Below are positions 28,853-30,837 of a DNA stretch of 64,000 bases, one piece after another; position 1 is the first letter of the stretch, and every line of letters begins with the position of its first letter. Source of the stretch: a phage; assembly GCA_024614665.1 (NCBI GenBank), contig GCA_024614665.1_4861.1; one strand, 5' to 3'. A program made the translations under genes and the position numbers. The notes under the pieces are model-generated. The model ran no database searches and was not told the DNA's origin. It saw nothing but the letters and a program-made list of their open reading frames with translations.

Positions 28853-29689
28853 TTACTTCATAAGCCTGCGGAGCAGTTCAATTACAAATGGCTCATTCAC
28901 CAGTTTTAGACAGTTATAAATACGGTCCATTGTGGTATCCTGTTTCCAGCTGTACTTCTCTGCGGTTTTTAACACCACACCACGCGTTTTGCGATCGAGG
29001 GGTGAAAACATTATCCCGTCGCCAAACAACGTCAGGAACGCTTTGTTAAACGGAATATGTTGGGGTTTCCCGTTAAGTTTGGTGTACCACTCCAGTTGCG
29101 TTTTCACTTTACCGGTATGTGATTCCAACAAACCCAGTTTAGGGAAATCTTTACGTGCCAGGAGATCAGCTGGCATGTGGGTCAGTAACAGTGTGTCGCG
29201 GCTACCCTCTGGGAAAACATCGAATTGACGGAAGTCATTTTCGTGTTTCTCACCGTACATTTTTAAGGTGTCGTGTTCCAGTGCATTATAGTGCAGCTGG
29301 TTTGGCGTCATCTTATCCTGACCGCCAGCAATGTTTTTGAACGAGGCTTCGGGAAACACTTTGTTAGCGCTACGATAGCTACAAAGGTACGGAACGCATA
29401 ACACCGAAGGGGCTACCGCTCTCGCGGTAGCCGTAAGATTATTAATATCTTCTTCAATCGATGTTAGCATCACGTCGGGTGTTAACCGTTCTCTATTCTC
29501 TTCAAACGCATAGAAGGCGTTACGGAACAATGTCCGGAGATTCAGGTATATTTCCTGATAGGAATGGATAGGCAATTCGCCTTTCCAGTCGGCGTATTCG
29601 CCGGTATGCAGCAGACCTTCAAACGCCAGCGAACTGGCGATTGACACTGAATAGAACCCGAAAGTGCGATCAACACTGATTGGATTCAT
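28853..29689 (-). CDS. hypothetical protein
   Basis: 278-aa ORF overlapping start of downstream gene. Confidence 0.7.
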   Translation of the reverse strand: MNPISVDRTFGFYSVSIASSLAFEGLLHTGEYADWKGELPIHSYQEIYLNLRTLFRNAFYAFEENRERLTPDVMLTSIEEDINNLTATARAVAPSVLCVPYLCSYRSANKVFPEASFKNIAGGQDKMTPNQLHYNALEHDTLKMYGEKHENDFRQFDVFPEGSRDTLLLTHMPADLLARKDFPKLGLLESHTGKVKTQLEWYTKLNGKPQHIPFNKAFLTLFGDGIMFSPLDRKTRGVVLKTAEKYSWKQDTTMDRIYNCLKLVNEPFVIELLRRLMK

Positions 29690-30837
29690 TCTATTTTCCT
29701 AATGATTGCAGTAACAACATCAGGGTCGTACTTCACTGATGTTAGCTCTTCGAGAACCAGCCGTTCGAAGTTCTCAGGAGTAGGTTTTTCGTACACTGGG
29801 GCTTCGTTCGAAAAACTCTTCACTAACAACTCCTCTTCTTCAGAGGAGCGCACACGCTCTCCAGAAATGTGGAACGTGTATTCTTTTTTCCACCGACTGA
29901 CGTATTCGGCCATCGGTGAACCTGCGTAATACTCGACCTCAAATCGCCCAATAGCGGACGAGGGATGATTGTCGATGTATTCTAATGCAGAAAGACAAGC
30001 TGCTAACTGCGCATCAAAGTCTTCCTGTGCCCGAATCTTTTTCTGCGGGCACGCGCGTGGGTTAACCAGGAAATAATCCCTGGCAACCGTATCGGTGAAA
30101 TCGACAAGAGCTACGCCTTTGTCCTCCTCTTCACCTTGAGATAGTCGCTCAGGACTACCTACAACTCTTATCTTGTCTAATTCCTTGGGTCGATGGTCGT
30201 GCCCGATAAATATCAGGTGCTTGACTCTCGGCAACCAGAACTCCTCGTGGAAAGAACGAGGGGACTCGACAGGGAGTTGAAACTGGAAGCAGCCGTGCAT
30301 GAAGATAAAGTCTAACTTCTCCAGGCCTCGTGTCGCCATCAGTTCTGCCATTTCTGCCTCAGTGGCAGCGGCATTAATTTCATCGACGCCAGCAGCTTTA
30401 TATTCGTCCTGCACCCAACCTACCATCGCATCGAGAGCCGGATCGTAAAATATCCCGATCCCTGCCAAATACAAACAGTCTGCGCCTATACTGATGTTCA
30501 GCGACTCAACTATTTTGGACTGGCCGTGGTCATGGGACGGTGTTCCCTCAACGATGCGAACTGCGGTATTAGTGGCCTTAGACCACTGGAGCAACCACGT
30601 CAAGAAGCCCACAGCTTCTTGAGAATCTTCCTGGCGAAGATGTCGGGAATCATCAAATAAATCTCCCGCTATATAAAAGGCGTCAAGCGTATTTTCGCAG
30701 CTAATGAGTACCTCACGTATCACATCCACGATGTGCCAAGTGGGCACACGTTTATGCAATAAATGGATATCGTTAGTGTTCAAAAGGCGCTTAACACCTT
30801 CTGGTTTCTTAGGAGGTTTAGTAATCTTCTCCATCAC
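29686..30837 (-). CDS. Mre11/SbcD-like calcineurin-type metallophosphoesterase (putative recombination nuclease)
   Basis: Phosphoesterase motifs in order: DIHL, GDLFDD, GTPSHDHG, FMHGCF, GHDHRP. Confidence 0.7.
   Translation of the reverse strand: MMEKITKPPKKPEGVKRLLNTNDIHLLHKRVPTWHIVDVIREVLISCENTLDAFYIAGDLFDDSRHLRQEDSQEAVGFLTWLLQWSKATNTAVRIVEGTPSHDHGQSKIVESLNISIGADCLYLAGIGIFYDPALDAMVGWVQDEYKAAGVDEINAAATEAEMAELMATRGLEKLDFIFMHGCFQFQLPVESPRSFHEEFWLPRVKHLIFIGHDHRPKELDKIRVVGSPERLSQGEEEDKGVALVDFTDTVARDYFLVNPRACPQKKIRAQEDFDAQLAACLSALEYIDNHPSSAIGRFEVEYYAGSPMAEYVSRWKKEYTFHISGERVRSSEEEELLVKSFSNEAPVYEKPTPENFERLVLEELTSVKYDPDVVTAIIRKIE

Follow-up and report, generated by a model that had tools for sequence, protein, structure and literature searches.

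Genes for SbcC and SbcD have been reported to be practically universal in jumbo phages (PMC7824862). In Salmonella phage SPN3US, gp27 was identified as SbcD and gp186 as SbcC by Thomas et al. 2016, J Virol (PMC5105663), who reported that a gp186 amber mutant is lethal, making this gene essential, inferred that gp27 is essential as well, and described the two genes as "drastically separated" in both SPN3US and phiKZ. In an antisense knockdown screen of phiKZ, the core genes 065 ("nuclease") and 165 ("SbcC-like nuclease") were scored ++/++ and +/+, respectively, and knockdown of phiKZ065 or phiKZ165 lowers plaquing (PMC12571901). A transposon sequencing (TnSeq) preprint on phiKZ records zero insertions in orf165 (bioRxiv 10.1101/2025.11.23.690004), and a localisation of the PhiPA3 SbcD homologue (gp59/gp60) was not found in the main text of PMC10643120. 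Here we describe the gene for an SbcD-type nuclease in a 64-kb stretch of phage DNA (64,000 nucleotides; NCBI GenBank assembly GCA_024614665.1, contig GCA_024614665.1_4861.1), referred to below as the window. An original prediction, made from the letters of the window, had called the corresponding open reading frame (ORF) Mre11/SbcD-like and had pointed out that no obvious Rad50/SbcC gene lies next to it.

A functional model for the SPN3US-type pair is provided by T4 gp47/gp46, the phage Mre11/Rad50 pair needed for recombination-dependent replication (PMC5105663), and by T5 D13/D12. The two systems differ in several respects: the T4 genes are clustered whereas the SPN3US-type genes are separated, the central region of gp186 exceeds its T4 counterpart's by ~300 residues, and chimalliviruses, unlike T4, replicate within a protein-shelled nucleus. 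No BLASTP-detectable similarity exists between the SPN3US proteins and T4 gp46/47 (PMC5105663).

The nuclease gene and its source

The DNA of the window is 97-99% identical to that of SPN3US and of relatives such as SPLA3, phages of the SPFM series and SEGD1, with values of 98.7-99.4% against SPN3US-like phages, and by this sequence criterion its source is an SPN3US-like Salmonella jumbo phage, a Seoulvirus of the nucleus-forming, phiKZ-like group (Chimalliviridae). The plus strand of the window is the SPN3US map reversed, window positions 1-25000 corresponding to SPN3US 51,852-26,854. The ORF at 29686-30837 is real: it lies on the minus strand and encodes 383 aa when read, as in the ORF listing, from an in-frame GTG at 30837. 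This GTG stands one codon before an ATG at 30834, the start used in database annotations, from which residues are numbered here.

29686..30834, minus strand: gene for the SbcD/Mre11-like nuclease, 382 aa from the ATG at 30834; orthologue of SPN3US gp27 (SPN3US_0027) and of phiKZ065

The encoded protein is 100% identical to SPN3US_0027, whose gene stands in the same context, and to the SbcD of SPLA3, and the DNA around the gene is ~99% identical to SPN3US. SPN3US_0027 is annotated as "putative nuclease SbcCD D subunit" and, in RefSeq, as "SbcD-like subunit of palindrome specific endonuclease"; dozens of GenBank records already carry the gene under the name SbcD. Near the gene, the window phage differs from SPN3US by a 391-bp insertion with an extra ORF and by a 357-bp group I intron, and otherwise by nothing of substance. 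The more distant phiKZ065 aligns with 34% identity (BLASTP, E=1.7e-31), and phiKZ gp065 and gp165 are orthologues of highly diverged sequence.

The product of the ORF is very probably the nuclease subunit of an Mre11-Rad50/SbcCD complex of the phage, with an ATPase that is encoded distally. We favour this explanation because of the homology and fold of the protein, the conservation of its active site, the hallmarks of the distal partner and the co-occurrence of the two genes.

Family and fold of the nuclease

The nuclease matches PHROG_100 ("SbcD-like") with E=3e-64, and its weak NCBIfam matches are to SbcD and Mre11 only. A family profile built from 56 homologues, with identity down to 24%, gave 16 matches in the PDB, all of them Mre11/SbcD chains. 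The best of these was the Mre11 chain of the Thermotoga maritima Mre11-Rad50 complex (3qg5_C, E=1.2e-12), where profile positions 15-350 align with residues 2-344 of 379, near full length. The family is large, an exhaustive hidden Markov model search yielding 1,087 representatives at 50% clustering with E <=1e-30.

An AlphaFold2 model built on the 56-sequence alignment (mean predicted local distance difference test score, pLDDT, 92.4; predicted template modelling score, pTM, 0.82) has the architecture of Mre11, with a phosphoesterase domain and a capping domain. When the model was compared with the PDB by Foldseek, ranks 1 to 18 were all occupied by Mre11/SbcD proteins over 337-508 alignment columns. 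These included E. coli SbcD (7yzo_A, E=5e-14), the T. maritima Mre11 core, which gave the highest template modelling (TM) score (0.73), and the human, Pyrococcus furiosus, M. jannaschii and Chaetomium Mre11 proteins; other calcineurin-like folds (PolD DP1, LpxH, the Pol delta/zeta B-subunits and purple acid phosphatase) began at E=1e-5. The Mre11/SbcD identity put forward in the original prediction is therefore borne out by PHROG, by the profile-to-PDB search, by the predicted fold and by the conserved motifs described below. With E. coli SbcCD and the T. maritima and P. furiosus Mre11-Rad50 complexes the nuclease shares its fold (phosphoesterase domain, capping domain, C-terminal helices), the order of its motifs and a catalytic His. 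It differs from cellular Mre11/SbcD in sequence, with 13-17% identity in structural alignments, and in carrying GTPSHD rather than GNHD.

At the C-terminus, a linker (~residues 342-355) in which pLDDT falls to 58 is followed by two short helices.

29692..29769, minus strand: pair of short C-terminal helices, spanning residues 356-363 and 371-381 in the AlphaFold2 secondary structure

We take the position of these helices to match that of the Rad50-binding domain of T. maritima Mre11, and infer from the model that they would form the Rad50/SbcC-binding helix-loop-helix, as laid out in bacterial Mre11.

Active-site motifs

The five phosphoesterase motifs occur in canonical order, and their residues are invariant or nearly so in the 56 homologues.

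30763..30771, minus strand: motif I, D22-I-H24, metal A ligands; D22 and H24 in 55/56 homologues
30652..30666, minus strand: motif II, G57-D58-L-F-D61, with the bridging Asp; G57 invariant, D58 in 55/56
30529..30546, minus strand: motif III variant, G97-T-P-S-H101-D102; G, T, S, H and D in 56/56, P in 55/56
30292..30297, minus strand: motif IV, H180-G181, invariant in the alignment
30193..30204, minus strand: motif V, G211-H212-D-H214; H212 and H214 invariant in the alignment

Because the motifs are near-invariant in the 56 homologues and the profile and fold match Mre11/SbcD, their presence is far beyond chance occurrence. The claim that all five calcineurin-type motifs are present in order thus holds as to presence and order, but must be amended for the third: four of them (I, II, IV and V) have the canonical form, whereas motif III reads GTPSHD where GNHD is usual. 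The GDLFD form of motif II is typical of Mre11/SbcD, and the Asn of motif III is a feature of the whole superfamily rather than of Mre11. Among the homologues listed, GTPSHD is found in 111 of 120. In the HMMER alignment, Ser100 stands opposite the Asn metal ligand of the T. maritima Mre11 "G--NHD", and the invariant H101-D102 aligns with the H-D of its "NHD", the His being the equivalent of His85 in P. furiosus Mre11. The clade-wide replacement of GNHD by GTPSHD is a detail of possible minor use to specialists.

The probable distal Rad50/SbcC partner

SbcC and SbcD are encoded by a single operon in E. coli and in most cellular genomes. The phage pair, in contrast to this single cellular operon, lies ~147 kb apart. 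In SPN3US, the 836-aa gp186 (SPN3US_0186, annotated "putative SMC domain-containing protein") is encoded at 168,900-171,410, a distance of 146.7 kb from SbcD (21,020-22,168). It contains a Walker A motif, GGNGCGKT, at residue 36, a Walker B/D-loop, LLLDEPSEGMD, at residue 761 and an SHE H-loop. Its single CxxC, CPQC, lies at residue 413 of 836, the midpoint, as expected of a Rad50/SbcC zinc hook. The protein has a PDB match to Rad50 ATPase heads (E=8e-5) and NCBIfam matches to Rad50 models (E=5e-16 to 1e-10, below the equivalog cut-offs), and gives sub-threshold matches to Pfam SMC_N, AAA_15 and AAA_23. From its sequence, gp186 is judged to be a Rad50/SbcC-like protein whose ATP-binding cassette (ABC) head is split by a long central region, treated by analogy as coiled coil, with a CxxC hook in mid-protein; the E. 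coli, Thermotoga and Pyrococcus partners likewise combine a split ABC head with a CxxC hook. The phage protein differs from its cellular counterparts in a degenerate signature motif, which by eye reads GSKAQ for SGGQ/E.

The same separation is seen in other members of the group. SPLA3, whose SbcD is 100% identical to that of the window, encodes SPLA3_190, annotated "SbcC-like subunit", at 179,807-182,317. In phiKZ the SbcD and SbcC-like genes are 113 kb apart; phiKZ165 is 21.5% identical to gp186 over its full length (E=1e-48) and has a similar layout, with GSNGSGKS at residue 35 and CPSC at 412 of 830. By tblastn against a phage database, an SbcD-like protein was found in 301 records and an SbcC-like protein in 300. 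The correspondence extends to single host genera, with SbcD/SbcC records for phages of Pseudomonas (81/81), Erwinia (62/62), Salmonella (35/35), Vibrio (23/22), Serratia (21/21), Aeromonas (19/19), Klebsiella (16/16) and Ralstonia (13/13).

As a separate observation on these records, SbcD, SbcC, gp26 and gp28 appear as three to seven tblastn pieces in LR535901, LR535906-08 and LR535913 (SPFM1, 7, 8, 9, 10 and 15); the broken SPFM genes, with their truncated "hypothetical proteins", look like frameshift errors of assembly rather than biology.

Within the window, no gp186 homologue was detected (best tblastn E=0.88), as its map position predicts. Pfam searches of nine large window ORFs gave no SMC or AAA_23 match, and the strict Walker A pattern [AG]xxxxGK[ST] was absent from all window ORFs of at least 60 aa. 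Relatives of the window phage have a DNA helicase and a large terminase annotated in this region, yet no strict Walker A was found, so that their P-loops must be non-canonical. An 837-aa ORF at 60402..62915, SbcC-like in size, proved by Pfam to be a DUF7193 protein and not an ATPase. An adjacent SbcC was also considered for the metagenomic contig L005, a relative at greater distance, and rejected, the 879-aa and 446-aa neighbours being uninformative in Pfam and tblastn with gp186, gp28 and gp26 being blank.

The absence of a neighbouring Rad50/SbcC gene, as first proposed, is thus upheld by the searches of the flanks, and so is the suggestion that the partner may be elsewhere, given the position of gp186 in SPN3US and the same split in SPLA3 and phiKZ. 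The orphan nuclease that the original prediction implied fares less well: no partner lies next door, but the gene is not an orphan, an SbcC accompanying it almost record for record. Because close relatives encode SbcC ~147 kb away, the partner of the nuclease is not missing.

Flanking genes

The nuclease gene is tightly packed between two smaller genes on the same strand.

30818..31492, minus strand: upstream gene gp26, 224 aa; overlap of 17-20 nt between its end and the start of SbcD
28853..29689, minus strand: downstream gene gp28, of the phiKZ066 family, 278 aa; start codon ATG and the stop codon of SbcD overlap in the sequence ATGA

A motif scan of gp26 and gp28 found neither Walker A nor GK[ST], nor anything resembling Walker B. 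Neither has a Pfam or NCBIfam match, both belong to PHROGs of unknown function, and their family profiles compared with gp186 by hhalign gave a probability of 0.2% each. The possibility that either is a divergent Rad50 was ruled out by the motif scans, by Pfam, PHROGs and NCBIfam, by profile searches of the PDB and by the hhalign comparison. At 224 and 278 aa, where a Rad50/SbcC ATPase would exceed ~550 aa, and with the scan blank, the flanking genes have, as originally stated, neither Walker motifs nor the length of a coiled-coil ATPase, and no flanking ORF turned out to be a Rad50 in disguise. The gp26 family profile has no match in the PDB, and its distribution is narrow, with 26 homologues only, all from Seoulvirus or Erwinia-phage relatives; no relationship between phiKZ064 and window gp26 could be detected.

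The gp28 protein is related to phiKZ066 (BLASTP, E=5e-32), an "uncharacterized" core gene (PMC12571901). Its structure model, of very high confidence (pLDDT 94.9, pTM 0.90), has a predicted fold like that of flap endonucleases (FEN) and 5'-3' exonucleases, a PIN-like 5'-nuclease fold with a helix-three-turn-helix (H3TH) region, and not an ABC fold. The gp28 family gave no link to FEN at the sequence level, neither in a profile search of the PDB nor by hhalign against T4 RNase H (probability 0.5%), so the FEN link is structural only. FEN and 5'-3' exonucleases have ~7-8 conserved active-site carboxylates, which bind two metals. The conserved acidic residues of the gp28 family are an invariant E189 and the nearly invariant E24, E138, D175 and D224, with no others. 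In a manual comparison, the invariant N50 lies in a segment, "hhhhN..TL..RN", that resembles the first-Asp motif of FEN, "hhhhDG..L..R". If the FEN fold holds, the active site of gp28 looks degenerate, and gp28 may not be an active nuclease. We regard it as a possible accessory of SbcD, context rather than a proven part. Iyer et al. reported flap nucleases only outside the phiKZ-like group, and a FEN-like fold of phiKZ066 was not found described in the searchable literature. The FEN-like fold of an uncharacterised core protein encoded just downstream of SbcD is of possible minor use to specialists.

Alternative explanations

Several points weigh against the assignment of the nuclease to a phage SbcCD complex. 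Searched with the single sequence, Pfam gives Metallophos at E=0.033, below the cut-off, and phmmer against the PDB returned nothing relevant, with spurious DCC matches only. Since these single-sequence searches are weak, the assignment rests on the profile and the fold. The Asn metal ligand of motif III is replaced by Thr-Pro-Ser, with Ser100 and Thr98 as candidate ligands, and without it the geometry of the metal site and the activity may differ from those of the model enzymes. As to the partner, the SbcC gene of this phage is inferred from relatives that are ~99% identical, its map position lying outside the window; the separated arrangement gives no operon evidence of partnership; and a physical interaction of a phage SbcD with SbcC was not found in the literature. 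One rival is some other calcineurin-like phosphoesterase, for example a DP1-like proofreading 3'-5' exonuclease for the nearby family-B polymerase, a pyrophosphatase of the LpxH type or a phosphodiesterase acting on (cyclic) nucleotides. The weak generic Metallophos match and the atypical motif III would suit such an enzyme, as would the automatic naming of one JGI homologue as LpxH, the fold-search matches to PolD DP1, to the Pol delta/zeta B-subunits and to LpxH (E=1e-5 to 1e-3), and a divergent polymerase that has no fused exonuclease domain (Iyer et al.). We nevertheless consider it a slim chance, as Foldseek puts Mre11/SbcD proteins ahead by about nine orders of magnitude, with matches along the whole chain, capping domain included, profile-to-PDB matches are exclusively to Mre11/SbcD, and the gene tracks SbcC almost one-to-one over ~300 phages. 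The loss of the motif III Asn, with GTPSHD for GNHD throughout the clade, could also be read as the mark of a catalytically dead Mre11-like scaffold. This is the least credible of the explanations considered here: all other metal ligands and His101 are invariant across a family of ~1,000 representatives, a pattern of purifying selection on the active site, and Ser100, at the Asn position, is itself invariant.

The original prediction had also allowed that the enzyme works with a different factor. This alternative is without direct support, its sole hint being the FEN-like fold of the translationally coupled gp28. In its strongest form, SbcD would do without Rad50/SbcC and pair with the product of a neighbour such as gp28 in a phage-specific, two-nuclease resection module. 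The block from chimallin to RNA polymerase is syntenic across the Chimalliviridae (PMC10299810), so that the adjacency of gp28 is weak evidence, and an SbcC-like gene accompanies SbcD in essentially every record. In addition, the AlphaFold2 model of SbcD retains the C-terminal helices typical of a Rad50-binding domain, and the gp28 family, with its few conserved carboxylates and N50 at the place of the first Asp of FEN, may be inactive. We therefore think it very unlikely that gp28 stands in for SbcC; any role of gp28 would more likely come in addition to SbcC than in its place. A further proposal, which is speculative and which we hold to be improbable without dismissing it, is that chimallivirus SbcD forms a distinct Mre11 subclass (GTPSHD, Asn lost), with the coupled FEN-fold gp28/phiKZ066, its active site seemingly degenerate, acting as a dedicated third subunit or resection cofactor in the phage nucleus. 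The nuclease subunit of an SbcCD complex with a distally encoded ATPase remains the explanation that we prefer.

The conserved gene block

The nuclease gene is part of a core block in the order divergent family-B DNA polymerase, chimallin, a piece of the non-virion RNA polymerase (nvRNAP) beta' subunit, small genes, SbcD, gp28-gp32 and RNA polymerase beta.

38779..41058: divergent family-B DNA polymerase, window gene
34980..36833: chimallin, assigned by position

This order is kept in phiKZ (054 to 073), in Vibrio phage pVa-21 and in one metagenomic contig. The flanking order in phiKZ, 064-065-066-067(ChmC)-068-069(PicA)-070, is the same as in the window, and BLASTP ties window proteins to phiKZ055, 062, 065, 066, 068 and 070. 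We equate gp29 with phiKZ067 (ChmC) by position and literature, and gp31 with phiKZ069 (PicA) by position only. ChmC is a nucleus-associated RNA-binding protein, the phiKZ067 counterpart of gp29. A reading of gp29 (28131..28826), with its glycine-rich tail and acidic tip, as a single-stranded DNA-binding protein was dropped in favour of phiKZ067 = ChmC on the basis of synteny and Thomas et al.

Three consecutive conserved genes (28131..28826, 24648..26348 and 23268..24635, all on the minus strand) have long, low-complexity tails rich in glycine at their ends, and sit where phiKZ067 (ChmC), 069 (the PicA importer) and 070 lie. The tails read ...GGGSFGRGGYGGGQGGGQRSGGGYQQQQ...DSYDEFL in gp29, ...GGLDLGGGLGGIGGNGLGNGLID in gp31 and ...LLGGSTQLGGGSTNLLGGSSDVLGGLGGLGGGSGSS... 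in gp32. Proteins of the ChmC, PicA and 070 types are associated with the nuclear shell in other chimalliviruses, and the glycine-rich tails could play a part in transport or in the behaviour of condensates.

The nvRNAP beta' gene is interrupted by a group I intron at 33174..33530 (minus strand), detected as RF00028 by Rfam at 33228..33537 (65.5 bits, gathering score 50, E=2e-14). Exon 1 spans ~34897..33531 and exon 2 ~33173..32946, the latter beginning just ahead of the catalytic DFDGD. The beta' gene of SPN3US is uninterrupted (531 aa), and the 357-bp insertion was bounded by blastn against SPN3US. The intron has no ORF of its own; an apparent 500-aa ORF at 33395..34897 runs into it. The 391-bp insertion relative to SPN3US, at 31902..32292, adds a 141-aa ORF (31880..32305, minus strand) between the homologues of gp24 and gp25. 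This ORF occurs in SPLA3 and in the SPFM phages, has no PHROG match and gives sub-threshold Pfam matches to a PHA02142 OB-fold and to DUF7383; possibly it is a small gene of mobile or accessory type. Three tRNA genes were found by Rfam at 49532..49603, 49606..49675 and 50761..50833 (minus strand), with 30.6, 38.1 and 65.6 bits.

Proposed function and significance

By analogy with the described systems, SbcD and gp186 would form a heterotetramer through the C-terminal helices of the nuclease. The complex would be a Mn2+-dependent, ATP-regulated exo- and endonuclease acting on DNA ends and hairpins, and would feed recombination-dependent replication of the phage genome, as T4 gp46/47 does, presumably inside the phage nucleus. 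The published genetics of gp186 and gp27, and of phiKZ065 and phiKZ165, fit an important role.

The nuclease, the distal SbcC and the separation of their genes were already known through the 2016 treatment of SPN3US and phiKZ, and published functional genomics of phiKZ has dealt with both genes since then. The present finding adds little to this record: the nuclease is neither an orphan nor a new system, and its arrangement is an ordinary one for this phage family.

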